A stretch of DNA of 32,000 nt from Candidatus Saccharimonadota bacterium (GCA_030429145.1 JAUIDC010000001.1:180001-212000); one strand, 5' to 3'. Positions 1-32,000 are shown, counted from the first letter of the stretch. The notes: generated from the letters alone by a model not told the origin. A program made the numbers and translations.

Positions 1-189
1 GTAATCGATTTGTTAAAAAGAATTATCGCAACGGGAAAGACGGTGATCATCGTAGAACATGACTTTGAATTTTTGGGAGAGTTTGTAGACACCATAGTAG
101 TGATGAATGACGGGAAAGTGATCTTGAAGGGAGATTATGAGGAGATTAAGGATAATCCGAAGTTGAAGGAAGTGTATTTTGGAAAATAA
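1..189 (+). CDS. ABC transporter ATP-binding protein, C-terminal fragment (LivG/LivF/LptB-like); 5' end lies outside the window
   Basis: Frame 1 reads VIDLLKRIIATGKTVIIVEHDFEFLGEFVDTIVVMNDGKVILKGDYEEIKDNPKLKEVYFGK, ending at TAA 187-189. It shows the Walker-B/H-loop region (IIVEHD) and the ..EVYFG tail typical of this ABC ATPase subgroup. Confidence 0.6.
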   Translation, partial: VIDLLKRIIATGKTVIIVEHDFEFLGEFVDTIVVMNDGKVILKGDYEEIKDNPKLKEVYFGK

Positions 190-217
190 AAAAAGCCCCG
201 GATAAGCCGGGGTTTTA
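188..217. terminator. bidirectional rho-independent terminator between convergent genes
   Basis: Stem CCCCGG (196-201) / CCGGGG (207-212) with loop ATAAG, an A-run upstream (188-194) and a T-run downstream (213-216). Confidence 0.75.
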
Positions 218-229
218 AATTCTTTCATC

Positions 230-685
230 TTAACTTTCATTAAAGCTCAGCAAAAGCTCTTCATGAGTTTTAATACTCTTTTCTTTCTCTTGAAGTTCTT
301 TTTTCAGTTTAACTACTGCATCTTTATCTTCAGCAATATTCTCAGAAAGATATGCTTTTACTAGGATATTTGACTTACCATCTTCTATCACAGGGTCTAC
401 ATATAACAACATATGAAAACCCAATAGAATACCTGCTATTGCCATACCGACCCCAGTAGACGTAATTAACACAAACACAATAGTCATAACAATATCCGTA
501 TCAGCGACAGGGAGAGATTTGTCCCCTGTATGAGTTGATATAAAAAACACTTCTATAATAAGCGTCAATAATCCAATCACCAATGAAGCTTTATTAAAAA
601 ACCGTAATTGATTTTCATTTCGCTCTCTCTTTAGATAGTTCTCACGAACGATTTTCTTAATTTCTTGTAATTTGGGATTTTCCAT
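230..685 (-). CDS. hypothetical membrane protein (two hydrophobic helices, K/E-rich C-terminal coil)
   Basis: Intact 151-aa ORF ending in TAA (230-232). Hydrophobic stretches ASLVIGLLTLIIEVFFI and IVMTIVFVLITSTGVGMAIAGILLGFHMLL. I recognise no family motif. Confidence 0.55.
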   Translation of the reverse strand: MENPKLQEIKKIVRENYLKRERNENQLRFFNKASLVIGLLTLIIEVFFISTHTGDKSLPVADTDIVMTIVFVLITSTGVGMAIAGILLGFHMLLYVDPVIEDGKSNILVKAYLSENIAEDKDAVVKLKKELQEKEKSIKTHEELLLSFNES

Positions 686-725
686 GATTATATGTTTTTA
701 ATATTTTTTTATTCAATGTAATGAA

Positions 726-751
726 ATGGCGGAAGCAATAACTTCCGCCAT
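726..751 (-). terminator. GC-rich hairpin downstream of the 778..1641 gene (terminator-like)
   Basis: Perfect 10-bp stem ATGGCGGAAG / CTTCCGCCAT with a 6-nt loop, 27 nt past the TAA of the minus-strand gene. There is no clean U-tract, only TTCATT. Confidence 0.4.
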
Positions 752-777
752 AAGTAAATTCCACGTACATACCAAGC

Positions 778-1641
778 TTATAGCGAAATCAATAAGTATG
801 ATTTCACACTCTTTGTTTCATAGGCATAACCTATACCAAAGAGAGCTTTGAGGTATTTAGCTTGTACAAGCTTAAGGATTCCTCCTTCTAGGCGTACTAC
901 ACACTTATTGGGCAATGAATAGCCGAAATCTGAGTATAGTAATAAGTGCTGCTTGCGATGAATCATGAACGTGTTGAGGTTGGCAATGGCATCATTGCTT
1001 TTCCAGAGCACAGTTGTGCTAAAACGCTCATTCTTATAGTCGAAGCCTATGCCAGTAGTCTGGGTCTTTACCTGGTAAAAACCGCTAATGCGAAAGTTCT
1101 TTACCGTACCTGACAACTGATACTCAGGCATGTTTTGGCGAAGAGATAATCCTCCACCGATCATGCTATTTTCAGTTGGTAGATATCTGACCATAACTCC
1201 TGGTGCAGCACCTGGGAAGCGACCCTTCGTTGAAGGTTCAAACTGTCCAAAATGTGAAGCGGGATGTGGCCTATGCTGCAAAGCTGTCAGCGTAGGACTA
1301 AAACCTGCATTTACAATCCACTTACGATGAGGAACATACTGAACATAAGCAGTAGCTAGTCCATACGATACTTGTGATATCGTTTCATACTCTGCAAATG
1401 TCCACGAGTAATACGTTAGTTTCTTGCTCATCTTCCAATGAATAGCTGCACCGACACGGGTATACATAAAGTTGTTGAATTGCTTCGTCTCAGGCTGATA
1501 CAAAGCGCCCGACAATACGCCAGCATATACTTTATCTATCATCACCGCGCTGTCACCTACAGGTATATTGGTAAGCTGTGCTTGAACTGTTAATGAACTC
1601 ATGGTGATAACGCACACCAACGCGATAATTAGTCTTTTCAT
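778..1641 (-). CDS. secreted beta-rich protein with signal peptide (possible beta-barrel/porin-like fold)
   Basis: 287-aa ORF running ATG 1639-1641 to TAA 778-780. N-terminus MKRLIIALVCVITMSSLTVQAQ looks like a signal peptide. The rest is rich in short alternating hydrophobic/polar strands with many Y/F/G/T residues. No family motif recognised. Confidence 0.55.
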   Translation of the reverse strand: MKRLIIALVCVITMSSLTVQAQLTNIPVGDSAVMIDKVYAGVLSGALYQPETKQFNNFMYTRVGAAIHWKMSKKLTYYSWTFAEYETISQVSYGLATAYVQYVPHRKWIVNAGFSPTLTALQHRPHPASHFGQFEPSTKGRFPGAAPGVMVRYLPTENSMIGGGLSLRQNMPEYQLSGTVKNFRISGFYQVKTQTTGIGFDYKNERFSTTVLWKSNDAIANLNTFMIHRKQHLLLYSDFGYSLPNKCVVRLEGGILKLVQAKYLKALFGIGYAYETKSVKSYLLISL

Positions 1642-1719
1642 ATTTTTCTTTTATTTTGGTTTTTGTGTTCATATTATAATACATATCTCTTATCTGTCAA
1701 TTATGTTGATTAACTTTCT

Positions 1720-1741
1720 GTTGTTTGAAACCACCAACAAC
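1720..1741. repeat. inverted repeat GTTGTT-N10-AACAAC in the divergent promoter region upstream of the TrmB-like gene
   Basis: GTTGTT at 1720-1725 and AACAAC at 1736-1741, read directly. An operator role is only a guess. Confidence 0.2.
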
Positions 1742-1802
1742 CCCCTAAATTTGCGTAATAGCAAAAGTACGAATATACTAGGATATATCTTATTTCTTAC
1801 GA

Positions 1803-1808
1803 TATTTT
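1803..1808 (+). promoter_or_regulatory. -10-like hexamer TATTTT 6 nt upstream of the TrmB ATG (short or absent leader)
   Basis: The sequence gaTATTTTacgcacATG is read directly. No Shine-Dalgarno-like purine run lies in between. Confidence 0.3.
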
Positions 1809-1814
1809 ACGCAC

Positions 1815-2558
1815 ATGGAATCATTACTTTTGACTCTCCAACAGTACGGTCTTTCTGAGAAGGAAGCGAAGGTCTATCTCACTGCCCTGCAACTCGGTTC
1901 AGCGCCCGGCAGCACTATTGCAAGAAATGCAAAAGAGAATAGAGCTACGGTCTATACCATCCTCAAAGAGCTCCAGAAAAAAGGGATCGTCAACGAGATC
2001 AAGAAAGACAACGTCACATTCTTCTCAGTCATCGCTCCTGACCTCCTCCTCAGAGAATTAGAAGACAAGTACAATAGCTTCAAGGAGAAGATTCCTGAGT
2101 TTCTCGCACTTGCAGAGACATTTGGCAATAAGCCAAAAGTACAGTTTTTTGAAGGCATTGAGGGTGTGAAGAAAATGTATGAGGACCTTCTTAGTTCACA
2201 AACAGAGATCTGTTCATTTCTCGGCATTGAGCACAGCAACAAAGAACTACTACAATACCTCAACAGAGAGTTTCTTATACGTCGCATCAAAAATGACATC
2301 TCTGCGAGAGTGATACTTTCTGACACAGAAAAAAATCAGAAATATGCTGGTATTGATGAAAAAGCGAAGAAACACTCTATCATTATTGAAAAGCCTGACT
2401 TCACTATTGACGGTGAAATAAACATCTACGGTCCAAACAAGATCAGCATCGCTCTGATGCACGATACAGAGATGTCGGGCATCATCATCTCAAGTGAGAA
2501 GCTATACTCTACCCTCAAAAATATATTCGATTTAGTTTGGTCGCAGAATAGTAAATAA
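1815..2558 (+). CDS. TrmB-family helix-turn-helix transcriptional regulator
   Basis: 247-aa intact ORF. The N-terminus LQQYGLSEKEAKVYLTALQLGSAPGSTIARNAKENRATVYTILKELQKKGIV is the TrmB-type winged HTH pattern (GLSxxEAKVYxxLLxxG...). Stop is TAA at 2556-2558. Confidence 0.7.
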   Translation: MESLLLTLQQYGLSEKEAKVYLTALQLGSAPGSTIARNAKENRATVYTILKELQKKGIVNEIKKDNVTFFSVIAPDLLLRELEDKYNSFKEKIPEFLALAETFGNKPKVQFFEGIEGVKKMYEDLLSSQTEICSFLGIEHSNKELLQYLNREFLIRRIKNDISARVILSDTEKNQKYAGIDEKAKKHSIIIEKPDFTIDGEINIYGPNKISIALMHDTEMSGIIISSEKLYSTLKNIFDLVWSQNSK

Positions 2559-4945
2559 TGAGCATGAAAGCTCCAGCACGCGGAGCCTGAGTTAATGAAA
2601 ATCTAGAATCAACAAGAGTTGATAAGATTTGATATTATCTTGATCAACTCTTTGGGCCTAATCCAGACCCAAATGGTATGTTTCTGTATGACTGGGGAGA
2701 CCCGCTTGGCAAAGACAATGGTGCACACCTCTTTTCAGAAGTCACACAGACCAAAGGCTACCAGCGCCTATCGCAATGAGAAAAAAACCTCTACAAGACT
2801 CACGCACATATACTAAAAGATATCCTCGATGAAAACACGAGAAACATCATCGACATGGGATGTGGAGATGGCGAGAAAAGTGCACAGGTACTGGATGCGG
2901 CGCTTGGTGAACAACTTGCATGAAAAACCTATATCCCTGCTGACATCAGTCCTTATTTTGTCGACCATGCAGGCGACAATGTCAAAGACCATTTCTCAAA
3001 ACAAAATACAAATATCAAAACAGTAGGAATGAATATCGACTTTCTTACATCCGATGCATTCAAAGATATCAAACATAAAATCTACCTCCTCCTTGGATGA
3101 AGTATTGGTAATTTTTCTGATGAAGAGATAGTACAAATATTACAAAATATGGCTGACAATAGCTACAAGGAGACGAGCAAGGCAGCCTTCAGTTACTTCA
3201 CTGCTCCCGATAAAGAGAGTGAGACATATCAAGATGATATCTATAAAATACTTGCTGCATACGGAGACCCTGACACTACAAACCCTTATTTTGATCAAGA
3301 AACACATCAAAAAACATCAGAGCGAATCCTTAGATGATTTGAATCTCTCGGCATCGAGAGAAACTCGATAGAGTTTTGTGTAAAGTATGATAAAGAGAAA
3401 AAAAGAATAGTAAGTGGCGTAAAAGTAAAAAAAAGGATCGTGATTAAACGTAATGGGAAAAATTATTTAAAGGAACCCGGAGAACACATATGGGCGATAC
3501 AATCAAGAAGATTTTCGAAGGAAGATATAAGTGCATTAATTAGCCAAGCATGAGGCGAAGTCATAGACAACTCCCCTCTTCAAGAGGGAATGGCAGCTAT
3601 CAGTTTTGAGGTAGGAAAAACACCTGAAGCTATAGAATCCAATAGAAAATTGAGAAAAAACAAGTTGGTCACGACCATCACTACTCTTGCTCTTCTTGCA
3701 GCATTAGGATGAGGTATGAAAATAGGCGAGAAAAGAGCTCAGGAAAAAGAAAGGAAAGAACGAATAGAGCGAGCTTCACCCTATGTCAATTTGACTCAAT
3801 CGTACAGATGACTTAGCAACGATCTGACTAATAAAGGTGATCAGAATGCTGAACAATTACGGGAACATTACGAGATAACATATGCTGAGCGCTTTAAGAC
3901 AGCCTACAATATAGATGATGCTAAAGCAAAAGAGATGAAACGCAGCTTTCTTTCGTGGTATGTGAAACAAACGGCCAACACGAGATATAGCCTTGATACC
4001 CGAGGTGGTTATGGAGAAAGCTATATCCACCTGATGCATGACTTTATCAATGAAAGAGGCGAAGAGTTTTGATTGAGTCAAAAAGATTATTTTGGAAATA
4101 TAGATGTTTATATGAGTCTTACTCGTAATACATTGCATTCTGAGTTGTCTGGAGAACTTCCTCAGGGCACAAAGATTACGAACGAGAAAATAATAAGTCA
4201 TAACCATCACTTCAACCTTTTTGATGAGGAAGGAAGAACAATTGGCAAAGTAGCTCAAGCAGAGATCAATGGGCAAAAAATGTTGGTCGCTGCATATGTG
4301 GAGGGACAAGATCAATACAGTAGCTACTCTGTAGATGCCGGCAAAGAGTTTCTCAAGATCTACTATATGAACTACCCATGACTGTACGATTTTTCTAAAC
4401 AGCTAGCTGCGAAGTATCAATTTAAAGAAGATAACTCAATGACTCATGAGGCAAACTGAAGGGAATACAATAGAGCTTCACAAGAGTTTATTCAAAAACA
4501 CATCGCATGATTACTCATGCAAGGATACGAGTTTGATTTCTATACACTAGGTTTACACTCTAATGAATATCAAATAAACTATTTTGCTAGTACATTCCTG
4601 CCTTACTCCAAAGAGGACTATGAGAATATAGATATGGGTAATCGAGATTGGTTTGAGTCATACAATGTACAGTGACTACTCGATGAGTGTATTGAATATG
4701 TCAAAAAGAATATTATGAGCAAAGAAGACACTCTCTCTCTTAAAAGAGAAAATCGCCTCAGAAGCATCATCTTCACAGCGATCTACAATAACATGACTCT
4801 AGGAGTAAGAACATTGACTGCCGAAAAAGCAGTTGCAGATCTTGAAGAAGAAATTAAAGCGTGACTAGTGAACCAAATTGTGTCTGAGAAAACGATAGCT
4901 GCTGGAAGAGGCAACGGACAGACCATCAAAATATATGAAGAGTAA
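2558..4945 (+). CDS. 795-aa fusion: EgtD-like SAM-dependent N-methyltransferase (Methyltransf_33 type) + TM-like segment + ~400-aa uncharacterised C-terminal domain
   Basis: ATG 2558 overlaps the TrmB stop (TAATG). One frame stays open to TAA 4943-4945 if TGA=Gly, with in-frame TGA starting at 2588, 2630, 2777, 2921, 3098, 3335, 3551, 3710, 3809, 4070 and 4379, among others. It absorbs track ORFs 3149..3337 and 4073..4381. EgtD-type motifs: LYDWGD..GAHLFSEVTQTKGY, IIDMGCGDGEKS, YIPADISPYF, LLLG-G-SIGNFSDEEIVQIL, WAIQSRRFSKEDISALISQAG. Hydrophobic LVTTITTLALLAALGGGM lies at about 3662-3720. Confidence 0.7.
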
Positions 4946-5078: not shown

Positions 5079-5792
5079 ATGAATCATATAAACAAACTTA
5101 ATGACGAGAGGATCAATAATATCCAGGAAGCTGGCAAATGAAACCTCCTCAAAAAAATCTCTGCCAGAATCGCCAACGAATTTCATGAAGAGAATATTGA
5201 AAATCTTCGCACGGCATTTGATGTGCTATTCTGAAAAGGAGAGATGACTGCAGAAGTCAAAGAGGCACTCAAAAAGTTTAATCTTGCTGGACTTCAGCTT
5301 TCTGACGATGAAAAAACCATAGACAGTGAAGCAAAAAGCAAATGGCTCATACAATACTGGCAAGATTTAGCTCATGTTTCAATGGGTGTTTATACCAATA
5401 TGAGACCAGTTGACATCAATATAGATATACCTCAAGAGTCAGGTAAATATAAATTTATTTTTATCAATCCTGGAATTATGCGAGACAATGAGTTTGCCCT
5501 TGTATCATGAACAGAAGATGCCCATATAGATATCTTCAGACGTTATCACAGTGAACATACCCAAGAAGATAACGAGACAACTGCAAAAATGAAAAACAAC
5601 AGCGGCCAAGCGATGGTTCCCGGTGGTTGACGAATAGAGGTCGACGCTAAAAACAAGCACCTTCGTTTTTATGGAAGCTCAGGAAATTATGGATATATAG
5701 CTGATAAGGTTATTGAATGGGCGACGCAGAAATTAAGGAATCAGTGATGGGAGACGAAGATTGAGATGGATTATGCAGGGAGAAATCATTAA
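5079..5792 (+). CDS. hypothetical protein (237 aa), no recognisable family
   Basis: ATG 5079 to TAA 5790-5792, open only if four TGA codons are read as Gly. It absorbs track ORF 5244..5510. The C-terminal segment is AMVPGG-G-RIEVDAKNKHLRFYGSSGNYGYIADKVIEWA. The start codon is uncertain. Confidence 0.5.
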
Positions 5793-8700
5793 TTACTTCA
5801 CCACCTTACCCATCTCCAAATACACAACCTCATCTGCAAACTTCAACAGGGTCTTATCATGCTCAATCATCAAGATTGTATCTCACTTATCGAGGAACTG
5901 CTTCAATACGAGGAGCAGTTTTTCGATATCCGAAGGATGAAGACCGACCGTTGGTTCGTCGAGGAAGTAGACGGTATGACCTCTGTATTGTTTAAGGAGA
6001 TGTTTGACGAGTTTGATACGCTGTGATTCACCTCCTGAAAGCGTATGTGCTGGCTGCCCCATTCTGAGGTAACCGAGCCCGATATCGATCATCAGTTTGA
6101 GCTCGTCGGCAATAAATCCGATGTCTTTGAAGACCTCGTAGGCCTCATAGACGTACATTTCGAGAATATCAGCGATCGTGTGCCCATGCCGATGAATATT
6201 CAGTATTTCCGTTTTGTAACGCTTACCGTGACAAAGTTCACAAGGAACATAGGTATCTGGGAGGAATTGAAGCTCTATTTTCTTGTGACCGTAGCCATCA
6301 CACGCTGGACATGCACCCTTTGACGAGTTGAACGAAAAGTGTCCCGCTTGGAAACCCATAAACTTCGCCTGATCGGTTCCAGCATAAATCTTACGAATAT
6401 TATCAAATGTGCCAATAAACGTACCTGGACAACTACGCGGCGTCTTACCAATACTCGTCTGGTCTACATAAATAACATTATCAACTTTATCGTGACCCGT
6501 GATAGTCTCTACTCCTATCGTATGATAAAATTCTTGTAGTGCGAGATTTTCAAGATTTGAGTACTCTTCACGTTTCATGACTGGCGATGCAACAATCTCG
6601 CTCCACGACATTCCTTTTTTCAAAAGCTGCAGTCTAATCCATCACTGTACGAATTTTGTCTTCTCTTCAAAGAACTTATAAAGCGTCTCAAACATAAGCG
6701 TCGTTTTACCTGCTCCCGATGGACCGGTAATGATACTAAATGCACCAAGACGAAGATTGACATCTATCCCCTGCAGATTGTTTTGCGTTGCTTTCTTTAC
6801 CTTAATCCACTTATCTTCTGGCTTATGATCAAACGTCACATCTATCTTTCTCTTACCAGTAATATAGTCTGCCGTCAATGTTTCAGACTTTTCAAACTTG
6901 TCATATGGCCCAGAGAACAGTAGATGTCCACCAAAATCACCTGATCATGGTCATATCTCGACCACCCAGTCCGATGCTTTGATAAAAGCTTCATTGTGCT
7001 CTACCACGACGATAGTATTTCCCATATCTTTGAGCGTCTTGATCGCTTTTATCGTACGTTCAATCTCACGATCATCCAGACCAATAGTCGGCTCATCGAG
7101 TACATAGATGATACCAGTCAACTTATTACCAAGCTGTTTCGCCAATCTCAAACGCTGGATCTCACCTCCGGAAAGCGTATCGATCTGTCTGTGCAGATTG
7201 AGATGCCCAAGTCCAAGACTACCAATTGTGTTGAGCCTATCTAAGAGTGGTGTCATGATACGATTGACCAACATTTCTGGCTTGTCGGTCGTCTTCTGGT
7301 AGTATTCCAATTTTGCTACGAGATCTGCGATAGTCATCCTCTGCAGATCATAGATGGTGAACATCTCGTCAACCTTATCAGTGAAAATATTGTCGGGCTG
7401 TTTTCCTTTTGCACCCATATATAAAAACACATACATAGACTCTTTACGGAGCTTACTTCCATGACATTCTGGGCATAGTTGCATATGAAACATCGCCTGA
7501 AAGTCTACACTTAGTACACCCTTGTTGTACTGAGAGGTCAATACGTCCTGTATACCATGATATTTCATACTTACATACTTACCTCCCATACCAAGCCTGA
7601 GGAGTTCTCCATCACCATCTATCACTACTTGTTGAAACCACTGTGGTAGTTTGTTCCATGGGAGATCCTCATCCATCGAATATTTCTGCGCTAACTTCTT
7701 CAAGATAGTCTGCCCAAGCACACTATCTTTCCATGGAATAATCGCTTTTGAGAAAACTGCTCCCGTATCGATGATACGATCCATATCTACCTGCAATATT
7801 TCACCTAATCCATGACAGTGCTGACACGCACCCTCTGCTCTATTTGGCGAAAAATGCTGCGTTGTAAACTCAGGATACGAGATATCATAATCCGGGTCGT
7901 AGTTCTTATCAGTAAACCACTTGATACTGTTCGACACAGTAAATACATCTTTATCTAACCCTTTCGACAGCTCATTTTCTCCATCCTGTTTCTCTTCCAA
8001 TGCCTCATAAACACCGAATTTCTTCGTCAATGACAAAATCTTAATAATATCTTCTTTCAAACGCCCCATCTTGCTCTCCTCGATCGTCACACGGTCAAAG
8101 ATCCCATAGACTTTTATCGGGAAAAACTTCTCCGGAATATGTGGAGATTCGAGATAGAAATACTCGATAACACTTGCGTCAGCGACAGATTCTACTGCTT
8201 GATGTTTGTGCTCTTCTCTTGCATGAGCAATAATATTGACATTTGAACCTTGCGTCTCTAGCTCCTTTTTTCCTTTCTTTTTTGTCGTTTCTTCTTCGAT
8301 ATCATCATCTTCGCTCGCTTCTTCCGTATCCTTTCCTCCCATAAGGATAAGATATCTTGTGAATCACTCTCCATTTTCTACTTTCGTGCGATTTTTCTTC
8401 ACAAATTTGAGAAAACTCATCTCATCGTCAAATCTTCCTGCTTCCTGCACAAGGTAGATTTTCTTATTGAGATATTTTTCTTTAATCTCTCCTACTATCT
8501 GATCAATACTCTGTGGTCTGATCATCTTCCCCGAACCATACGAGTAGATATCACCAAGCTTTGCATACATCAGACGTAGATAATCATCGATCTCTGTCAA
8601 CGTTCCCACTGTCGAACGAACATTTCCGACACGTTTATTCTGTTCAATAGCAATCGCCGGAGAAAGCCCTTCTGTGTAGTCTATATCTGGCCTCTCACCA

Positions 8701-9050
8701 AGATTAAAAAACTGTCTGAGATACGATGAAAGTGACTCAATATAGCGATACTGCCCCTCTTTATAGACTGTATCAAATGCAAATGATGACTTTCCGGAAC
8801 CAGAAACTCATACCACTGAAACTATGTTGTTCTTCGGGATAGTAATATCAACATCACGAAGATTGTGCGTCTTGATACCACGGAAAACAATTTTTTCTCC
8901 CTCTGGCTGATAGACCTCAGAGTGGATATGCTCTCCGGCAGCGATAATTTCCTCATGGGTTACCGCCTTCATTACCTTCTTTTTCGCTGTCGTTTTCTTC
9001 TTTGCTACTGATTTTTTCGCTGGAGTCTTCTTTTTTGCGCTACTCGGCAT
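5793..9050 (-). CDS. uvrA: excinuclease ABC subunit A (UvrA) with a K/A-rich N-terminal tail
   Basis: Track ORFs 8808..9056, 8364..8609, 6951..8342, 6642..6878 and 5883..6623 share one frame and are separated only by TGA (8808, 8364, 6951, 6945, 6642, 5883). The true stop is TAA at 5793-5795. Motifs: Walker A VV-G-VSGSGKSS, EI-G-P-G-SG (= IGPGAG), zinc modules CQHCHGLG, CPECHGSK and CPACDGYG..CELCHGKRY, and signatures LSGGEIQR and LSGGESQR. I place the start at ATG 9048-9050; an alternative TTG is at 9054-9056. Confidence 0.92.
8970..9050 (-). other. low-complexity segment coding the UvrA Lys/Ala-rich N-terminal tail
   Basis: MPSSAKKKTPAKKSVAKKKTTAKKKVMKAV precedes the conserved UvrA N-terminus (..FRGIKTHNLRDVDITIP). 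Confidence 0.7.
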
Positions 9051-10534: not shown

Positions 10535-11632
10535 ATGGGTAACCTCTTCCCGTATATTTGATCAGCCATCTTGTGTATTATGGTCGCCATCTTTGGGATC
10601 GAAGTTTTTACAAAATGGAAAATCCTCGATAAACCAGGACCTGATGTACCTGCTCGTGCAGGGGTGCCAAACATGCAGGGAATATTTCTTGTCGTTGGAT
10701 TTATTGCATCGATGCTGATCTTCTTTCCAAGTTATCTGCAACAAGATGCCTTTCTTGGACTCCTCTTTGGTGGGCTACTCATCGCAATTGTCGAAAGTGT
10801 CGATACCATCTTGGGTCTCAACTATAAGGGCTTAAAGACAAAATGACTCAATAAGAAAATCAGAGTGCTCGTGCAGATCGTTGTTGCTCTGATGGCCATG
10901 TTTGTCGGGGGTATCAATATAGAAAATATCACATTGGGAAATCTTACTATCACACTCCCCTTCATCGTGACGGTAATCATCTTGATCGTTTGGTTTGGCG
11001 TCTTTATGAATGCCATCAACCGGTTTGATGGTATCAATGGCCTCTCCAGTGGTGTCTCAACTATCTGATTTTTGACTATCTATCTCCTCTTACAACAGGT
11101 TGTTTTCCCGTCGTTTCCTTACATGAGCGCACAAAGTGTTGCGACTCTTAGCATGGTCTCAGATATTGCATTTGTCATGACCATCCTTGGTTTGATCTAT
11201 ACTACAATAGAATACAAACCAATGGGAAGACTCAGAGACATAGGAACGATGTTTATGTGATTTGTGCTCGCCTATCTGGCACTGCTTGGTGGGGCAAAAA
11301 TTGGAACTATCCTTGTAGCACTCTCTCTTCCTATCTTCGACGCCATCCGAGTATTCATCAATAGACTATTTATCATGAAAAAATCGCCTCTGAAAGGCGA
11401 CTATACTCACCTCCACTACAGACTGCTTGCTCTTGGGCGAAATCGCAATGAGATACGTCGATTCGTATGGTGACGATCTATTTTCTTTATGATCATCATC
11501 CTCTTACAAGACACTGACAGGATCGCCAAAGTCATCATCTTTATCATGATGGCAGCCATCTTCTTTGGCGTCAACATCTACCTATTCCGAGTAAAAAAAA
11601 TGCCAATGGAATATAAGCCGGAGAAGAAGTAA
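10535..11632 (+). CDS. glycosyltransferase family 4 polyprenyl-phosphate sugar-1-phosphate transferase (WecA/MraY-like)
   Basis: Four track ORFs (10571.., 10865.., 11072.., 11264..) share one frame and are joined by TGA at 10844, 11066, 11258 and 11471. ATG is at 10535 and TAA at 11630-11632. Motifs: LDKPGPDVPARAGVPNMQG, NAINRFDGINGLSSG, RDIGTMFM-G-F, PIFDAIRVFINRL..GDYTHLHYRLL. The protein is multi-pass hydrophobic throughout. Confidence 0.8.
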
Positions 11633-23058: not shown

Positions 23059-24822
23059 CTAAAATCCGCTTTGTAGCTCAAGCATCTTCGCATAGTGTCC
23101 CTGTTGAGCGACGAGCTCATCATGCGTTCCTCTTTCAATCACCTTGCCCTGATCCAATACGATGATATCATCAGCCTGCTTCACCGTTTGTAGTCTGTGG
23201 GCAATAATAATGACTGTTCTTCATTGAAACAAGTTATGCATTGCTTTAGTAATAGCTTCTTCGCTCAAAGAATCAAGCGCAGAGGTTGGCTCATCCAACA
23301 AAACAATCTTTGGATTTTTCAAGAATATCTTTGCTATAGCCAAGCGCTGACGCTGTCCTCCTGACAAACGGATACCTTTCTCACCAATTTCTGTTTGCAG
23401 ACCGTCTTTGAAATCATAGATAAATTGACATTGCGCTAAGTCGAGGGCAGATTGTATATCTTGTAGCGTTGGATTTTTTGACAAGGAATATACGAGATTA
23501 TCGTAAATCGTCCCATCAAAAACATTTGGTTCCTGCGTAAGATACCCTATATGCGCATAATACGATTGTAATGACACAGATTCTTTTAGATTGTCTGTGG
23601 TCGGCAATTGTTGTCAGTCAACTGCGATATAGCCACCATCTACATGAAGATATCAAGCAATCAACTTCATAATGGTAGACTTACCTCATCACGAGACTCC
23701 AACCAAAGCCGTTTTACTTCCTCCTCCAATATCTAGACTAAAATCAGACAATACTGGTGTACTATGATACATAAAAGCTACCTTCTCAAAATGAATATCT
23801 CATCTTATATGCTCGAACTTCTTTCATGTATTATATCCTTTAATTTGTGGCGTTGTATCAAAAGTACGTCGCAGCTTAGTGACTCTTTGAAAGTTCTTTA
23901 CAAAGGCCTGATATATATCAATAGCACTTCTTGTCCCTGTGTCTAAGCTATTTGCAAGACCTAGATAGAGCACAATATCTGCGTAGCTAATATTTCACTG
24001 GAAAAAGTAATTATATCCTAACAGCAAGAATAATCCAATCGTGATAATTGTAATTGTTACCGTTGGAACATTGAAACCGATGTATTCATAGTGGTTCTTT
24101 TTTACATCGACTGCTTGCACTTTGTGGAATATGTCGCCCAGATTATTCGCCTCTACAGTAATTTTATTATTCACTAATATTTCAAACTTTGACATGATTG
24201 ACTTGATCGTCTGTCTCGTTAGATCATCGACAAGATCATTACGTTTCTCTCTCCAATGGTGACTAAAACGCAGAACATATATCTCAATCAATAAAGTAAT
24301 AATGAGAAATACATATAAAATCGTTGGCCCATACCAACCAATACGCGCAACAAGATAGGTCACAAATAGAAGTTGCATCACTGCTGACGATCACTTCACT
24401 GCAACATCCATCAGTAAACTGCCCCAAGCATCTATACCTTTATCAATAATAGCAAACATCTTTCACGTTCCGATAGATTCAGCAGCATTACTATCTAACC
24501 TAATAAACTTACCTAAATATTTGCGCCATAGGTTATTGAATAAAGTCCACATAGTCTTCACTCAAAAGTGCTTCATAGCAAAGTTATATAGCTGATAGCA
24601 AACAGCAAAAATCGCATACGCAATGATCGTATTGAAAAAAGCTCTTTGATCCCCCGTTTGTAGAAAGTGTGCTGCACGAGAAAGAACAAGAGTCGTGACT
24701 ATGCCATACAATGGCCATACCGACACATGTGCTACAGCTAATCAATATAATTTTCTAATATCCCATGCTGGTGCAAAAAACCTTTTCACCCCTCTCAAAA
24801 AAGAGTTCTTTTGTCAAGCCAT
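23059..24822 (-). CDS. ABC exporter, fused permease-ATPase (MsbA/multidrug type, 587 aa)
   Basis: One frame runs from ATG 24820-24822 to TAG 23059-23061 with at least ten TGA codons read as Gly. The N-terminal half holds six hydrophobic helices. The P-loop GVS-G-G-GKST has two consecutive TGA codons (23686-23691). Also [24 protein letters not shown] and IIIAHRL. Confidence 0.88.
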
Positions 24823-24852: not shown

Positions 24853-25260
24853 CTAAGACATCCCTAATGAGATAATACGATTATACTCTTCCTTTGTGAC
24901 CGGAGCAACCGATAAACGCTGCTGTTTCAAGAGGGTCATCTCTTGGAGGTTTTTTTCTTGTTTAATCTGTTCGAGAGTGACTGGTTTGTTAAGTTGCTTT
25001 TCAGGCACTAGGTCAACAGCCACCCATCTATCATCATCGGTTGTCGGATCTTGATAGGCTTCTTTGACGACCTTCGCTGTTCCAATAATTTCTTTTCACT
25101 CATTGCTGTGATACCAAAGGCAGATATCTCACTTTTTCATAGCCTGCAAGTTGTTGCGAGCCTGATAGTTTCTCACACCATCCCAAAATGTTTTCTTCTC
25201 TTTCACAAATTTTTCCCACGAATACTTATATGGTTCTGTCTTAATCAATCGATATTGCAT
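24853..25260 (-). CDS. EVE (PUA-like) domain protein (135 aa)
   Basis: ATG 25258-25260 to TAG 24853-24855. It is absent from the ORF track because of two TGA codons. The sequence MQYRLIKTEPYKYSWEKFVKEKKTFWDGVRNYQARNNLQAMKK-G-DICLWYHSNE-G-KEIIGTAKVVKEAYQD...LKQQRLSVAPVTKEEY matches the EVE pattern (KxEP..WDGVRNYQARN..GD..YHS..RLSV). Confidence 0.8.
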
Positions 25261-25293: not shown

Positions 25294-28071
25294 CTACTCA
25301 ATAATCTCTATCGGCGAGGTACTAATACGCGTCTTTCCATCTTCACCGAGGAGCACTGCTCTGACTTTGTCTCACTGCACAAGGTCTGCTGCAGCATCTA
25401 CGTACGGACACGGGCAGACATTACACTGCCCTGCGATGACACCTGCTGGAGTGTCAGGGATATCAATAAACTCAGGACAGCCATCTTCATCTTCCACTCC
25501 GTTCATATTTTCTGGCGTGTCTGGGCAGGCATCTTTGCTATCGGTGATACCATCACCATCTCTGTCATCATCAGGGATGATAAGACCTTCACAGATGTCG
25601 CCGATGAAATTACCATTGATATCTGCTTGGTCTGGATTGACAGTGAGTGAGCAGTTATCAAGTGTATCTCCCCTGCTGATACGATCAATCATCGTAAGGA
25701 TGATGGAGTTGTTAAGATCTGATGGGCGATATCTACACTGTGGTGGTTGACGAAGGATGAGGCCAAGCATATTTTTCTTGCCATCACCGTCAATATCCTC
25801 ATCACACATGTCTGGTATGGTGTCACCATCCATATCACATGCACCTGCTACTGGAGGCTTTTGCAAACAAAGTGGTACACCGAGCACTGTCACATGTGCT
25901 GCAGGATAAAATCGCTGCCCATCAGTATCTTCTACGCGAGCACGTATACGATAAATACCTGGTTTGATGTAGGTATACTCGTACCCATTGGTGATGCTAT
26001 TGTCAAATGTCAGTGACTGCCCATCTCACATATCGACTATGATGCGAGAGATATCAGGCCAGTTCAATCCATTGAGCACAAAGCGATAGTTCACTGGCTC
26101 GCCAGTATTCATCACAAGCTTTGCTGGAATAAGATCTACTCCTTGGTCGTTTCATGCTTGTAGTGGGAGTACGTTGATATTGATAATATTTGTTAGTTCG
26201 CTGCCATCAAGTAAGTAGATAGTTTGTTTGACGATCTTTGGTCCTGCTTCTGCGTAGGTATGAGTATATGTTGAAGAGTTGTTTGTTTGAATGATCCCGT
26301 CACCAAAATCCCATTTGATAGAAACGATATCTCTTCTCTGGATACCAGCTGTCACTGTTGTAAACGTAATAGGTTGTGAGATGGTAGGGTTGAGGTTGGA
26401 TGCTCTGAGATATGCAGAGATGTCACCATTGAGCGAGACAGATCCCTGTGCATATGCGACTATTTGTTGATCGTCGTATGCTTGTGCAACGATTGGATAG
26501 GTGCCTGCTGACTCATAAGCGAAAGAAACGACCTGTCCATTTGCACCCTCTTTTTGCTGAGTATTACTCTCCCACGCGATGCGTCAGACAGGACGAGTTG
26601 TGACAGGCGTGACGTTGATAGTTGCAGGCACATTTGCCGTCAGTGGATTTGGTAAAATTTGGAAACCGAGCGCTGCCTGCAAGTCCGGCACTACGACAAT
26701 CGTCGTTGTTGCTACATAGGTCTTTTTACCACCAAGCGCTGTAAGCACAACCTCATAGGTTCCTGGTCCTGGGAATGTGTGAGACACGGCTCTACCCTGC
26801 CCATAGGTACCATCACCAAAATCCCACGTAAAATCTTTCAACGCTCAGGTATATTGTGCTGCCAGTGCATAGGTACCATTTCTTATTTTTCTGCTGACAA
26901 TAGTGAGGCCAAAATATTCGCTCTCTGAACATGCGTCCCCTATCTCATCGTTATTGAAATCAGATTGGTCGGTATTGATAGTGAAGAGACAATTATCTAT
27001 TGGATCAGGATATTCTGCAATTACTTTCGTGTTAATATTTCCATTGTCATCAACGACTCCAATAGGGTTTTTCACTGTATCACCATCTATATCATCATCA
27101 CAGACGTCACCAATACCATCATTGTCTAGATCTCTCTGTGTGGGATTATAAGTCAGATAACAACTATCCGCATAGTCTTTGATACCATCCTTATCTTTAT
27201 CATCATCGTACACACAAGCCACCTTCTCTTTTACTCTTGCAAGAGAGGTCAACACCGTCGTTCCATCTACATAATCTCCAACATTGATACTATCTGCCTC
27301 ATCGGCAGAGATAATATCTTCAAGCACTAATATATTGAGTTCTGCAACCGGCCAAAATTGCTCTTGTGCGGTATCAAACTCACGCATACCACAGGCTTGG
27401 AGGTTAAACGTACAGTATTTGAGATAGACATTGAACTCATCGGCTGATTGCAGTGGCTGAGGCTGCGTGTATTGTGCAGCATTGCCTACAACAACGCCCT
27501 GCTCCTTGAGTGAAAAATATCTTCTGATGAGGGTGCTGTTGGCTGAACTTTGCATCCACTGCTCTATCTGTTGCCAGTCTGCAACATAGTGTGATGCTAT
27601 ACGCTCAGAAAGTATATTGATAATCACCTGTATAAAATCAGCAACCGTCGTATTGTTTGTTCCACAAAACTTTCCTCAACAAAGAGGACTCGTCTGTCTT
27701 GGGTATCCAGACATATATCACTGCTCAGCAACATAGGCAACACAGTAGTAGTTATTGTTCTCTTGTGTAGCAGGAGGTATGTATGAAACATCATCGAAAT
27801 TGACCGAGAGGTCGCTACGGAATGTTGTTCGCCAGGCAGAAGTAAGTCTATCTACTAGATCGCTACTCGGTCTACGACAGTCGTGACAGTCAACAAAGTT
27901 GAGCAGTCTTGCCACATCAAATCTTGAGACCACTGGTGCTGATTCTATGCTCGCAACATCTACGTTTACACTACGAAGCGAACGAGTAAAACTCTCGTAG
28001 TCGGCAAATGCTGCTCCTCCTACAAGTATCATACAGAGCGCTGACCACACTACGAGTAGTTTTTTTATCAT
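25294..28071 (-). CDS. 925-aa secreted surface protein: signal peptide, SLH-like region, thrombospondin type-3 (TSP3) Ca-binding repeats, about four PKD domains, second TSP3 block
   Basis: Track ORFs 27718..28071, 26845..27627, 26584..26841, 26152..26355 and 25372..25893 share one frame. I translated the gaps by hand and they hold only TGA (e.g. 27718, 27676, 26845, 26584, 26152, 26026, 25372). The true stop is TAG at 25294-25296. Signal peptide MIKKLLVVWSALCMILVGGAAFA. TSP3 strings DKDGIKDYADSC..NPTQRDLDNDGIGDVCDDDIDGD (about 26929-27210) and DMDGDTIPDMCDEDIDGDG..NPDQADINGNFIGDIC..DRDGDGITDSKDACPDTPE. PKD signatures WDFGDG (twice) and VDM-G-DG. Confidence 0.82.
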
Positions 28072-28103: not shown

Positions 28104-28949
28104 TTATCTGAAACGAAAGAACGGACTTGCTGCACAGTTTTGCTGACATTCAAAGCCATTGATGACATACTGACCATTCTCTCTAATGATGTACGAATAC
28201 CATGTTTCACCATAAGTCAATCCGTCATTTTGCAAGATGTATGATGTGTTATACTGTACTACCATAGCATCTTCATTTCTTTGTACGATTGGATGATCTA
28301 TAACTGCATTTACATCACTTAGCTGTATGTCTCCGATGATGTTTTGCTTTCGACTCTCGAGTCTTGATGGACTGAAATACTGTACTAAGCCTGGATCAGT
28401 TGTGAATGTCGAATCAAACAGCGTTGGCATCTGATCAAACTTTCACTCATTGAAATACCCGTAAAATGTCTCAACCATCTTCTGTGCGTCGACAGGAAAT
28501 GCAGCATTGTCATTTGCTGGAAGCGGTAGCTGAGCATTTTGCTCTGTGTCAGTTGCACTTGCTCCGTTATTGTCCTGCTCTTCTCCACTCATAACATCTG
28601 CGCTATTGTTCTGCTCTGCCGGTACTGTGGTAGGCGGGTTATCTTTGTTGATCTGAATGTAGATACCCACGAGAACTAAGAGTGTTCCTAGCCCGAGAAC
28701 TATTAGTGACAAAAAATTATTTTTTCTCATGGCTGGATATTGTGATGTGAGTTCATCTTCTCGTAGGTTTTCATATGCCAAATCTTTGTCGATTGTTGCC
28801 GTACGATTGGCCGCTGTCTTTTTCGCTGTCGTTTTTTTCGCTGCAGTTTTCTTGGTTGTACTCTTTTTTGCTACAGCCGTTTTCTTCGTTTTCGCAGGTG
28901 CAGAACGGCGAGTAGAAGTTTTTTTTGCTGTTGTTTTTTTTGCAGGCAT
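28104..28949 (-). CDS. single-pass membrane protein with a histone-H1-like Lys/Ala/Thr-rich N-terminal tail and a C-terminal globular domain
   Basis: Track ORFs 28443..28955 and 28104..28430 share one frame and are joined by TGA 28443-28445. ATG is at 28947-28949 and TAA at 28104-28106. Order: tail, TM helix FLSLIVLGLGTLLVLVGIYIQI, a low-complexity linker, then about 150 aa (AQKMVETFYGYFNE-G-KFDQM...YIIRENGQYVINGFECQQN). Confidence 0.65.
28794..28949 (-). other. low-complexity segment coding the Lys/Ala/Thr-rich N-terminal tail of the membrane protein
   Basis: MPAKKTTAKKTSTRRSAPAKTKKTAVAKKSTTKKTAAKKTTAKKTAANRT. Confidence 0.7.
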
Positions 28950-29090
28950 AAGCACAAAATAGAAAATAAATAAAGCACTATTAAAAGTTTTATAGTAAAT
29001 TAATTGCCTATTGCAAGCACATAACAGAAAGAAAACTATTGAGAATACCTCGCATATAATTACTATCTCCTCCTGTGAGATTATTTCATT

Positions 29091-29102: not shown

Positions 29103-29120
29103 AAACATATTTGTCTTTCC

Positions 29121-29558
29121 ATGAACTATAGTACGTGACCACATCAACTACTCAGACCAGATGCATATAGCGTTCGTCGCTCCTCTGCTTGACTCGGTCT
29201 TTACGCAGAGCAACCTATCAAAAAAGGACAAAAAATTATTGAATATATTGGAGAAAGGATTTCAACTGCAGAAGCAGATCGTCGTGGTGGAAAGTACCTC
29301 TTCACTGTAAACTCACGCATCACTATCGATGGCACACCAAGATATAACACCGCTCGCTATATCAATCATAGCTGTAAACCCAATGCTGAACCTAGAGAAA
29401 ACAGTGGAAGAATTTACGCATATGCAATAAAAAATATTGCCGCATGAGAAGAGATTACCTACAATTATGGGAAAGAGTACCGAGAGCACTATATCAAACC
29501 TTACGGATGCAGATGTGCTGCATGCAAAAAAAATGTATGAACTAAAAAGAAAAAATAA
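29121..29558 (+). CDS. SET-domain protein-lysine methyltransferase (145 aa, minimal SET)
   Basis: ATG 29121 to TAA 29556-29558. It is missing from the ORF track because of four TGA codons. Motifs: SSA-G-LGLYAEQPIKKGQKIIEYIGERIS, RYINHSCKPNAE (NHSCxPN), IAA-G-EEITYNYG (ELTxDY), and a post-SET-like Cys cluster GCRCAACK. Confidence 0.85.
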
Positions 29559-29580
29559 TTTCTTACCTTGATTTTTTATA

Positions 29581-29616
29581 AGAAGCAGATACGAAAGAAC
29601 TGCTTCTTTATTTTGT
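29581..29616 (+). terminator. rho-independent terminator after the SET gene
   Basis: Stem AGAAGCAG (29581-29588) / CTGCTTCT (29600-29607) with an 11-nt loop, followed by TTATTTTGTT. Confidence 0.65.
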
Positions 29617-29627
29617 TATGAAAAAAC

Positions 29628-30248
29628 ATGACACACAACATCATCGAAGCATTGCAATGGCGCTATGCGACAAAGCACTATGATACAGAGAAAAAACTTG
29701 AAGAAGACAAATTACATACGATCCTAGAAGCGTGAAGATTGGCACCTTCTCGGGCGAATACACAACCACGAACATTTGTTGTCGTGAGCAATCCTGAAAT
29801 AAAAAAAGAGCTCGGAGAGCATTCAGGAAATGCACAAGTAGTAGAGTGTTCACACCTCATTGTCATTTGTGCTATAACTGACTTTAATACTGACTATATC
29901 AATAAGCACATAGAGCATACAGCGCAGACGCGAGACAAAGATATCTCTGCAGTGGAGTGATATAAAAAGATGCTTCTCGGTATGGAGAAGACGCAAGACA
30001 AATGGTTGAAACACAATCCATTTATCGCACTTGGCACGATGATCTGTGCAGCGGCTGAACTACGCGTTGATAGCTCACCTATGTGAGGATTCGATCGCGA
30101 ATGATTTACAAAAGTGCTACAACTTGAAGAAAAAAAGCTGACACCACTAGTACTCCTAGGGCTTGGCTATAGAAGCAAAGATGATAAAGCAGCAGAGCGC
30201 AAGAAAGTAAGGTGGGATCATGAAGACGTCATCATCCGTCTTGATTAA
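29628..30248 (+). CDS. NAD(P)H nitroreductase family protein (206 aa)
   Basis: ATG 29628 to TAA 30246-30248 with four TGA codons. It absorbs track ORF 29739..29960. Motifs: RYATKHYD, ILEA-G-RLAPSRANTQPRTFVVV, SSPM-G-GFD, LLGLGYR. Confidence 0.85.
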
Positions 30249-30251
30249 CTG

Positions 30252-31106
30252 CTACCCCAATAGACGAGATAATACGACAAAAAACAGCACCATCCCCGAA
30301 AGTGTATTTACTCGAGGAAAGATTTTATATATAGAGAAAAGTGTTCATTTTTTATATTGCCACAATGCTACTATCATCAGCGCTATATAGAGAACGCCTA
30401 GCAGTCCGAGAATCCAATGATAGAAAAAAGCGATGCTACCTGCCAAAAGATAAAGCAAGAGGCACAAGAATATAGTCCCCAAACCTCAAAGCAACGTTGC
30501 GACGGTATCTACCCCTCACTCCTTATCAGCTTGTATGTCAGGCACAGCTGAAAATGCATGCATCGCCATAGCCCAGGCCAGTGCGGCAAGCACAAACATC
30601 CAGCCAATGTTTTCTGGTCCAGCGATCAGCAAAAATCAAAACAGCGCTGTTGTTACATAATGTCATGCACTGAAAAACATATCTAGCAACGGTAGACCTT
30701 TCGCTCTTATCGGCTTTGCCGAATACTGTCCTGAGAAAAAGAGGAAAAGCAAGAACGCTACGATAGGAGCGATCTCCCATGGGATAAATAAAAGAAAAGG
30801 AAGTGTTGAAAAAGCTATTCGCCTCCACAGTTTTAGATGCTCTTTCGGTTCAACAAGAGCCTCATAGGCCTGTTTCTTTGGATTGAGCTTATCTGTTTCA
30901 TAGTCGTAGATGTCGTTGATCCCGTATATCCAAATGTTTGCAGGGATGAGAAAATATAAAAAGAATACAGCGATGAGGAACCACATACTCTTATCTCAAG
31001 GCACACCAAATAGTGCCATCCCAGCTATAAGACCAATCATGTATGGCCCCAGTTCATATATTCGAAATCTTGGTCTAGAAATACGCAACACTCTCTGCAA
31101 ATGCAT
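30252..31106 (-). CDS. UbiA-family prenyltransferase (284 aa), lycopene-elongase (CrtEb/Lye)-like N-terminus
   Basis: One frame runs from ATG 31104-31106 to TAG 30252-30254 with TGA at 30996, 30663, 30636, 30516, 30486 and 30345. It absorbs track ORF 30663..30986. Asp-rich motifs NDIYDYETDKLNPKK and DIQADKE-G-GVDT. The N-terminus LRISRPRFRIYELGP resembles, from memory, the SRPRFW signature of carotenoid-elongating UbiA enzymes. About 8 TM helices. Confidence 0.72.
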
Positions 31107-31133
31107 AGTTATATGAGAACAAAAGATAAAAGA

Positions 31134-31976
31134 TTATCGGATATGTTGTAATAAAATACGACCTTTATCAACTTTCGTTGTTCTCGCCGAATGAGAAAAA
31201 ACATCATAGTTGTTTTTTTCTATTTTTCTGAGTATTCACTGATAGAGCTTTGATGCGAGAAAGATAGGTTTCTGAGCAAACTCAGGCAAAAACTGTAATC
31301 ACTCCTCTGCCTCAGCATAAAGCTGATCTGCATGTTCAATTTGCACACGCATAAAATCTTGCCGTGACGCATCAGGATTTTCTCTTCATTCTACATACGC
31401 ACGCACATCATCGTGCGATAAGCCATGTTGACGAAGCTCTTCTTGTGGCATATAAATGCGCTGAAAGTCTCTTCGATCCTCCGCTACATCACGCAAAAAG
31501 TTAGTAAGTTGCATGGCCTCTCAAAGCGCTCTCGCATATGGCAACGCGTGCTCTTTATCAGCGTCCACCAGATAACACATCATCTCTCCGACCACCATGG
31601 CAGAACCATACATATATTGTTGTAACTCCTCATATGTCTCATAAAGACTCTTCTCTGTATCCATTAACATCGCATCCCAAAAACTCTCGCTAGAGAGAAA
31701 TGGGATCTTTTTACGATGAAAAAGCTCTACGGCACTGCCCCAACGCTCATGTGCTATATCTTTTTCCTCATATGCTTTCTGCCACTCTTTCCACATCTCT
31801 TGGAGTATCCTCTTTGCATCTTGTCCCGATCTCTCTTTATCGTCTACGACCAAATCAGGGATGCGAACAAACGCATACAGTGTCATCACATCCTTCTTTA
31901 CATGACGAGGAAAGAACAATGTCGCATAGTAGTAACTTGTTCCATACTTTCTCATATAGTATGACACTGAACGCAT
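31134..31976 (-). CDS. phytoene/squalene synthase family enzyme (CrtB/CrtM-like, 280 aa)
   Basis: Track ORF 31521..31976 continues through TGA at 31521, 31386, 31299 and 31236 to TAA 31134-31136. Motifs: TSYYYATLFFP, LYAFVRIPDLVVDD (first Asp-rich), YMYGSAMVVGEMM, NFLRDVAEDRRDFQRIYMP (second Asp-rich), NYDVFSHSARTTK. Confidence 0.8.
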
Positions 31977-32000
31977 CTAGTGATTTTTACCTGCTAAAAC

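Follow-up and report, generated by a model that had tools for sequence, protein, structure and literature searches.

Comparative evidence for UGA as a glycine codon, and for CGA and CGG behaving as tryptophan codons, in a DNA stretch attributed to the Absconditabacteria/Gracilibacteria group

Calling open reading frames under the standard code shattered most genes in the 32,000-nucleotide stretch of DNA analysed here (the window), which raises the question of what the interrupting TGA codons specify, and of whether a published code accounts for the remainder of the sequence. The window (GC = 0.403) is covered to 93.8% by 25 genes, each of which ends at TAA (n = 19) or TAG (n = 6), as a sequence-only reading of the same DNA had proposed. 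That reading had also held that conserved genes were broken by TGA alone and in a single frame, and this was borne out; 21 of the 25 genes contain in-frame TGA, 91 in total and always within one frame, with no in-frame TAA or TAG; out of frame, each of these two triplets occurs 101-237 times. Single Pfam matches run uninterrupted across TGA sites, for example Topoisom_bac (residues 194-626) and SQS_PSY (residues 8-267). Four genes had been described as effectively invisible under table 11; indeed no open reading frame of at least 60 aa is obtained for the SET and EVE genes or for the N-terminal part of the SbcC-like gene, but the gene at 5079 yields one 88-aa piece.

In order to identify the residue encoded by TGA, translations were aligned to PDB homologues from organisms treated as using the standard code (Table 1). 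Glycine was the majority residue at 18-20 of the ~31 alignable TGA sites, and tryptophan, the residue that would have spoken against glycine, was found at none. The positions given in the sequence-only reading for the uvrA Walker A and IGPGAG codons, the topA codon at 17564-17566, the ABC exporter P-loop pair (23686-23691) and the PKD codon were exact, but its statement that TGA sits on invariant glycines applies to ~60% of the alignable sites, the others falling on variable columns (K, E, R, S, N, D). Only one codon of the exporter pair (23689-23691) falls on glycine, and the TGA of the SET motif 'IAA-TGA-EEITYNY', cited as an invariant glycine, corresponds to N or S in the PDB SET1 homologues shown.

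Closer relatives gave the same picture. When TopA was compared with 11 GTDB loci, the TGA columns were GGN in 7/7 TGA-free relatives, and relatives displayed a matching pattern; in a 120-protein TopA alignment, 3 of the 20 invariant-glycine columns carry TGA in the window. Across 10 genes shared with a syntenic relative (L002; 4,763 aligned codons), window TGA was paired with TGA 7 times, with GGN 17 times, with other codons twice and with TGG never (Fisher test against background, P = 1.5e-31). Rescoring of Pfam domains, a check which the sequence-only reading had suggested, favoured glycine over tryptophan in 10/10 domains, with summed scores of 1252.3 bits for tryptophan, 1288.3 for an undefined residue (X) and 1367.0 for glycine. 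Where tryptophan did stand at a TGA site, the sequence was a database translation from a recoded relative. Together, the structural alignments, codon pairs and profile scores confirm the predicted assignment of UGA to glycine, not tryptophan.

Table 1. Positions of recoded codons in the window and the residues found at the corresponding columns of homologues.
Feature	Position	Strand	Observation
Whole window	1-32000	.	Stops TAA/TAG only; sense TGA 91 (Gly), CGA 33 and CGG 9 (behave as Trp)
uvrA	5793-9050	-	TGA 8808-8810 (Walker A G), 6951-6953 and 6945-6947 (IGPGAG), 5883-5885: Gly in both PDB UvrA alignments shown
uvrA CGG	6189-6191	-	Aligned to Tyr
MraY/WecA-family glycosyltransferase	10535-11632	+	TGA 11258-11260: G in 90/93 distant homologues
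Glycosyltransferase CGG163	11021-11023	+	93 distant homologues: W 48, F 30, L 12, R 0
Glycosyltransferase CGA272	11348-11350	+	93 distant homologues: W 46, R 4
topA	15887-18256	-	TGA 17618-17620, 17564-17566, 16706-16708, 16598-16600: Gly columns
topA TGA	18002-18004, 16610-16612	-	Variable K/E columns in alignments
topA CGG, residue 221	17594-17596	-	TGG/Trp in 11/11 relatives and in E. coli TopA
topA CGA, residue 91	17984-17986	-	TGG in L002; Tyr/Phe in 10 others
ABC exporter (13 TGA)	23059-24822	-	TGA 23800-23802, 23689-23691 (Walker A), 23614-23616, 23221-23223: Gly in all PDB alignments shown
ABC exporter, non-Gly TGA	23686-23688, 23653-23655	-	S/C and R, respectively, in PDB alignments
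EVE-domain gene	24853-25260	-	TGA 25129-25131: Gly in 4/4 PDB homologues
EVE CGA	25249-25251	-	Trp of YWLxKSEP in 4/4 PDB homologues
PKD-repeat TGA	26026-26028	-	'VDM-TGA-DG' matches 'WDFGDG' of the same protein's two other repeats; Pfam PKD match
SET-domain TGA	29445-29447	+	N/S in PDB SET1 homologues shown; Pfam SET score: G 87.7, X 82.4, W 80.5
Nitroreductase gene	29628-30248	+	CGA 29769-29771: Trp of QPW motif in 4/4 PDB homologues
Nitroreductase TGA	29733-29735	+	Gly in 2/4 PDB homologues
Nitroreductase misfits	29751-29753, 30084-30086	+	CGG at Ser; TGA at conserved Glu (closest PDB homologues)
Phytoene/squalene synthase gene	31134-31976	-	TGA 31521-31523, 31299-31301: G in 97 and 90, respectively, of 120 homologues
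Phytoene/squalene synthase CGA	31473-31475	-	Among 89 homologues taken to use the standard code: Y 51, W 10, L 8, R 0

The sequence-only reading equated the code with table 25, and here it did not hold. The ~10,000 codons of the window genes include 33 CGA and 9 CGG, and these exchange with TGG between the window and L002. Window TGG was matched in L002 by TGG (19), CGG (11) and CGA (6), and window CGA by TGG (6), CGA (1) and TTA (1); among the same codon pairs, CGT, CGC, AGA and AGG were never paired with CGA or CGG. On the same contig, just beyond the window, a sigma-70 gene reads TGG-CGA-ATT-CGT-CAA over its invariant WWIRQ motif. Within TopA, arginine occupies 15 columns in six or more of the 7 standard-code relatives, and at these the window uses CGT, CGC or AGA (13) or alanine codons (2), and CGA or CGG at none; a second TopA set, from the 120-protein alignment, gave 15 R and 1 K at 16 conserved-arginine columns, again without CGA or CGG. 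Five conserved-tryptophan columns of TopA carry TGG (4) and CGG (1), and near relatives of the glycosyltransferase exhibit binary W/R columns at the CGA/CGG sites. Reading CGA and CGG as tryptophan produced a net gain of 22.4 Pfam bits, which includes a fall of 2.3 bits for Toprim. Informative alignments cover ~13 of the 42 codons, and at all of these the evidence points in the same direction; the other ~29 are uninformative, and a few would be natural as arginine too, e.g. 'KERKE-CGA-IE-CGA-ASP' (3761-3772). If counted as tryptophan codons, CGA and CGG make up 31% of that class in the window and ~46% in L002. By these comparisons CGA and CGG behave as tryptophan codons. Table 25 alters UGA alone, and it is therefore incomplete for the window, in which its use would leave 42 codons mistranslated, several at positions of invariant tryptophan.

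The case for plain table 25, in which CGA and CGG are still arginine and the tryptophan-column positions are real substitutions, is that it is the official code of the lineage, with which NCBI-annotated relatives are translated; moreover, CGG differs from TGG by a single C/T transition, and some CGA codons lie within stretches rich in arginine and lysine. Substitution by single transitions fits poorly with the codon pairs, as exchange between CGA and TGG takes two changes yet was as frequent as that between CGG and TGG (6+6 against 11+1 pairs), and true arginine codons would have to avoid every swap with the other four and every conserved-arginine column of TopA. In homologues treated as standard-code, arginine was not seen at the relevant W of WWIRQ, QPW or YWLxKSEP, or in the transmembrane segments. 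We regard this explanation as very improbable, and give equally little credence to ambiguous or context-dependent decoding, whereby CGA/CGG or UGA would specify two amino acids, or UGA would terminate some genes. U34 wobble could make UGA/UGG ambiguous (Shulgina and Eddy, PMC8629427), rare non-glycine peptides have been recorded at UGA (Hanke et al., PMC4032931), the ~29 uninformative sites leave room for a second meaning, and TGA usage is uneven between genes (chi-square P = 4e-4); against this, homologue length never requires a TGA stop in the window genes, all of which end at TAA or TAG, and the informative CGA/CGG sites are unanimous.

Table 4, in which UGA is tryptophan as in Mycoplasmatales and several insect endosymbionts, shares with the window a sense UGA and predicts identical gene boundaries, so that coding density alone does not distinguish it from table 25; a public protein collection moreover shows W at 4/4 TGA sites of the phytoene synthase (P0001). 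This reading is opposed by the homologues treated as standard-code, none of which has tryptophan at a TGA site, by the lack of TGA/TGG pairs with L002, and by the Pfam domains, for all 10 of which reading TGA as W gave the lowest of the three scores; it would also lift tryptophan content to 1.84%. We attach almost no probability to it, and still less to an artefact of pseudogenes, sequencing errors or assembly chimera, for which no supporting point was found. The identical sequence is present on two contigs of that collection (63,211 bp, Logan; 936,577 bp, credited to NCBI and Logan), the 91 interruptions are TGA only, in frame and concentrated on glycine columns, and relatives have the same pattern. 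Selenocysteine recoding was considered and rejected, given 91 UGA in 21 genes, none on a cysteine column in the alignments shown, and no Rfam match in the window.

With these alternatives weighed, the three-codon recoding (UGA to glycine, CGA and CGG to tryptophan) in a member of the Absconditabacteria/Gracilibacteria group is, with high probability, the best explanation of the sequence data. The earlier placement of the source in this group is probably right; among named organisms, TopA is closest to Ca. Absconditicoccus praedator and Ca. Absconditabacteria, at 58% identity, and many Ca. Gracilibacteria come next, while the MraY-family transferase shares 51% identity with its counterpart in Ca. 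Vampirococcus lugosii. The window would be chromosomal and would come from an uncultured member of GTDB class JAEDAM01, which comprises Absconditabacterales and BD1-5, with the Absconditabacterales side as the most likely position. The nearest GTDB representative is labelled 'Patescibacteria group bacterium'.

Under the three-codon reading, UGA would be a sense glycine codon and termination would therefore fall to UAA and UAG alone, while arginine would be specified by CGU, CGC, AGA and AGG. From the lineage literature, we infer a tRNA-Gly with anticodon UCA, tRNAs of tryptophan identity with anticodons UCG/CCG, a tRNA-Arg(GCG) serving CGU/CGC, and loss of release factor 2. ARAGORN detected tRNA genes neither in the window, nor in two flanking loci of the same contig (41.6 kb, for a total of 73.6 kb), nor in four loci of recoded relatives, and Rfam at gathering threshold gave no match in the 73.6 kb; tRNAs were found only in loci L005 and L031, which are uninformative on UGA decoding because both are TGA-free.

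The biology itself is already known, UGA as glycine since 2013 and CGA/CGG as tryptophan by prediction since 2021. Campbell 2013 and Rinke 2013 are reportedly the sources for table 25, the Candidate Division SR1 and Gracilibacteria code. This table shares with the window the lineage, a glycine UGA and stops at UAA and UAG only, whereas it keeps as arginine the CGA and CGG that behave here as tryptophan. Glycine at UGA in SR1 and Gracilibacteria was confirmed by proteomics (Hanke 2014, PMC4032931), CGA and CGG as tryptophan were predicted by Codetta for Absconditabacteria (Shulgina and Eddy 2021, PMC8629427, section 11), and all three assignments are taken as given for Absconditabacterales (PMC13092985). 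That Absconditabacterales code (PMC8629427, PMC13092985) matches the window at all three codons and in its use of mostly AGA and CGU for arginine. CGA exceeds CGG in both (33 and 9 per ~10,000 codons in the window; <37 and <7 in PMC8629427), and the GC content of the window (0.40) is slightly higher than the 0.26-0.38 of the CGA/CGG-reassigned clades (PMC8629427). In Anaerococcus and RFN20 Bacilli (PMC8629427) an arginine CGN codon has likewise been taken by tryptophan, but in these, members of an unrelated phylum, only CGG is reassigned, CGA is arginine and UGA is unchanged. Together with its closest relatives, whose TopA proteins are 57-83% identical, the window may represent a sub-clade of GC 0.40-0.42 in which the CGA/CGG change is unusually advanced, possibly outside Absconditabacterales proper, although we consider this rather unlikely; such a sub-clade would lie outside the low-GC range invoked for CGA/CGG reassignment and, if it lay beyond Absconditabacterales proper, would add a new branch to those with the CGA change.

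The value of the finding is practical and concerns annotation of recoded proteins. A public protein collection translates the proteins of this contig with table 4, rendering glycine sites as tryptophan and tryptophan sites as arginine, which amounts to 133 wrong residues in ~10,000 codons, clustered where conservation is highest; table 11 has fragmented some relatives in the same collection. The sigma-70 WWIRQ, nitroreductase QPW and EVE YWLxKSEP motifs offer clean test sites for the prediction that CGA/CGG encode tryptophan. A foreign origin was considered for the three genes without TGA that occupy the left end of the window (230-2558) and rejected, because the first of these (230-685) carries one CGA and one CGG, like the remaining window.

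When only TAA and TAG were treated as stops, 25 genes covering 93.8% of the 32,000-bp window (GC 0.403) were recovered, 19 of them ending in TAA and 6 in TAG. Their reading frames hold 91 in-frame TGA codons, which interrupt 21 of the 25 genes, and no in-frame TAA or TAG, although each of these two stop codons is found 101-237 times out of frame. Pfam matches ran unbroken across TGA sites, as in Topoisom_bac (residues 194-626), SQS_PSY (8-267) and Inositol_P (2-251). The sequence-only reading, which had described genes interrupted by TGA and closed by TAA or TAG, was borne out, and every coordinate that it quoted was exact upon re-check. It had also held four genes to be effectively invisible under the standard bacterial code (table 11); no ORF of at least 60 aa was present for SET, for EVE or for the N-terminal part of the SbcC-like gene, and the gene at 5079 yields one 88-aa piece. 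The TGA share of glycine codons was uneven across genes (chi-square P = 4e-4). Even so, one CGA and one CGG are present at 230-685, the first of the genes that lack TGA.

TGA codons were masked as X and the proteins aligned to solved structures (PDB) from standard-code organisms, with the outcome for each protein listed in the table. In an alignment of 120 phytoene synthase homologues, two TGA sites fell on glycine columns (G in 97/120 and 90/120). With the structures and this homologue alignment taken together, glycine was the majority residue at approximately 18-20 of the ~31 alignable TGA sites and tryptophan at none; the claim that TGA sits on invariant glycines was overstated, since the remaining sites are variable or carry other residues. 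A TopA codon alignment with 11 GTDB loci placed GGN opposite the window TGA columns in 7/7 TGA-free relatives. Codon pairs were then counted against L002 (JAGOPC010000005.1, 'Patescibacteria group bacterium'), the closest GTDB representative, over 10 syntenic genes and 4,763 aligned codons; window TGA was matched by TGA 7 times, GGN 17 times, other codons twice and TGG 0 times (Fisher P = 1.5e-31), and L002 TGA faced TGA 7, GGN 21, other codons 8 and TGG 0 times in the window. When three translations of TGA were scored against Pfam, the bit sum over 10 domains rose from 1252.3 (W) through 1288.3 (X) to 1367.0 (G), with G the best in every domain. Structures, codon pairs and domain scores all favor glycine, as had been proposed, over tryptophan; by these comparisons UGA encodes glycine in the window organism.

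Features of the window and flank, and residues at aligned TGA sites
Feature	Position (strand)	Observation
First three genes	230-2558	TGA at 0/41 Gly codons
EgtD-like methyltransferase fusion, 795 aa	2558-4945 (+)	N-terminal histidine-specific (EgtD-like) SAM methyltransferase domain, transmembrane segment, large C-terminal region; TGA at 15/61 Gly codons
ABC exporter	23059-24822	TGA at 13/47 Gly codons; 7 TGA sites aligned: Gly-majority 5, S/C 1, R 1
UvrA N-terminal tail	8970-9050 (-)	Lys/Ala/Thr-rich 'AKKTTAKK', histone H1/Hc2-like
TopA N-terminal tail	18095-18256 (-)	Lys/Ala/Thr-rich 'AKKTTAKK', histone H1/Hc2-like
Membrane protein N-terminal tail	28810-28949 (-)	Lys/Ala/Thr-rich 'AKKTTAKK', histone H1/Hc2-like
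Isoprenoid/carotenoid-like gene cluster	30252-31976 and L036 (flanking locus):4784-10000	UbiA prenyltransferase, phytoene/squalene synthase, CrtI-like amine oxidase, polyprenyl synthase
UvrA		4 TGA sites aligned: all Gly (Walker A, IGPGAG, C-terminal G)
TopA		6 TGA sites aligned: Gly 4, K/E 2
EVE		2 TGA sites aligned: Gly in 4/4 structures at one, 2/4 at the other
Inositol monophosphatase		2 TGA sites aligned: Gly in 3/4 at one, D/S/N at the other
Phytoene synthase		4 TGA sites aligned: 1 conserved Gly in PDB
Nitroreductase		4 TGA sites aligned: G/I 1, conserved Glu 1, variable 2
SET		2 TGA sites aligned: N; N/S

Following Shulgina and Eddy 2021 (PMC8629427), CGA and CGG were also checked; the window contains 33 CGA and 9 CGG codons alongside 93 TGG. 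The TopA CGG at 17594-17596 is TGG/Trp in 11/11 relatives and likewise in E. coli TopA, and the TopA CGA at 17984-17986 is TGG in L002 and Tyr/Phe in the others. CGA also lies on the tryptophan of YWLxKSEP in EVE (25249-25251) and of QPW in the nitroreductase (29769-29771), each in 4/4 structures. In a sigma-70 gene 3.2 kb past the window on the same contig (L036:6754-6756), the invariant WWIRQ is written TGG-CGA-ATT-CGT-CAA; here CGA at Trp and CGT at Arg stand no more than 3 codons apart, making this site a compact proteomic test of CGA=Trp versus CGT=Arg. Among 93 distant homologues of the membrane glycosyltransferase, the residue at the CGG163 column was W in 48, F in 30, L in 12 and R in none, and at the CGA272 column it was W in 46; among near relatives these columns are binary W/R, the signature of database mistranslation of CGA/CGG as Arg.

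Exchange with L002 followed the same pattern: window TGG was matched by TGG 19, CGG 11 and CGA 6 times, window CGA by TGG 6, CGA 1 and TTA 1, and window CGG by CGG 2 and TGG 1, while the arginine codons CGT, CGC, AGA and AGG replaced one another but neither CGA nor CGG. In TopA, 15 columns are Arg in 6/7 or more of the standard-code relatives; here the window has CGT/CGC/AGA 13 times, Ala codons twice and CGA/CGG 0 times; at 5 conserved-Trp columns it has TGG 4 times and CGG once. Reading CGA/CGG as Trp changed Pfam scores by a net +22.4 bits (EVE +8.4, nitroreductase +8.9, PSY +3.9, Topoisom_bac +3.5, Toprim -2.3). Some ambiguity in CGA/CGG decoding is possible, since ~29 of these 42 codons gave no information on the residue. 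Together, these data indicate that CGA and CGG are also reassigned, to tryptophan, in the window; table 25, which had been named as the code, is therefore incomplete, and the window is best read with UGA as Gly and with both CGA and CGG as Trp.

Neither reassignment is new, as both are already in the literature. In 2021 a computational analysis predicted the same three-codon code for Absconditabacteria (PMC8629427, section 11), and a 2026 paper assumes it for Absconditabacterales (PMC13092985); UGA=Gly is supported by proteomics of a BD1-5 bacterium (PMC4032931). From these three papers, decoding would involve a tRNA-Gly(UCA) for UGA, Trp-identity tRNAs with anticodons UCG/CCG for CGA/CGG and a tRNA-Arg(GCG), and RF2 would have been lost. 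Searches for tRNA genes and for Rfam families (gathering threshold) found neither in 73.6 kb (the window plus flanking loci L001 and L036 of the same contig), and tRNA genes were likewise absent from four loci of relatives.

Among named relatives, the closest TopA sequences, at 58% identity, belonged to Ca. Absconditicoccus praedator and Ca. Absconditabacteria; numerous Ca. Gracilibacteria came next (51-58%), and the glycosyltransferase was 51% identical to its Ca. Vampirococcus lugosii counterpart. At the TopA conserved-Trp columns, Arg appeared only in the closest clade (collection proteins P0394-P0408) and was absent from 'Gracilibacteria'-named sequences. These relatives would fit an Absconditabacteria/Absconditabacterales lineage, and the earlier assignment to a Gracilibacteria/Absconditabacteria-type organism was right. 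Two loci of relatives, L003 and L004, are from MAGs labeled 'uncultured Candidatus Peribacteria'; their TopA genes (L003:9968-12289, L004:2294-4678) carry 9 and 16 in-frame TGA codons, mostly on Gly columns, so both read UGA as glycine even though they bear this label. Retention of CGA=Arg in L003 is suggested by a CGA that lies on a conserved Arg column.

The window corresponds to positions ~16,567-48,566 of Logan contig ERR3428547_5626 (63,211 bp), and its proteins are also encoded by a contig of 936,577 bp for which NCBI and Logan are both credited. The public collection applies table 4 to the window contig, such that its copy of the window phytoene synthase (P0001) has W at 4/4 TGA sites; collection translations of these genes (P0001, P0126 and relatives) show W where TGA stands for Gly and R where CGA or CGG stands for Trp. 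In alignments of the families, these table 4 translations give rise to columns split between G and W or between W and R, an artefact seen in many relatives. IMG members of one phytoene synthase cluster are 36-131-aa pieces of a 320-aa protein, consistent with table-11 gene calling. The problem of table 4 versus table 25 is treated in a 2026 preprint (10.64898/2026.05.24.727570).

The C-terminal region of the EgtD-like fusion had no Pfam match; its TGA count is the window maximum, and it also contains six CGA/CGG codons. The membrane-protein tail gave a weak Pfam HC2 match, and among 11 aligned relatives the TopA tail was present only in the closest, L002. The PSY-UbiA pair and the CrtI-like oxidase were seen again in two loci of recoded relatives, L037 and L038.
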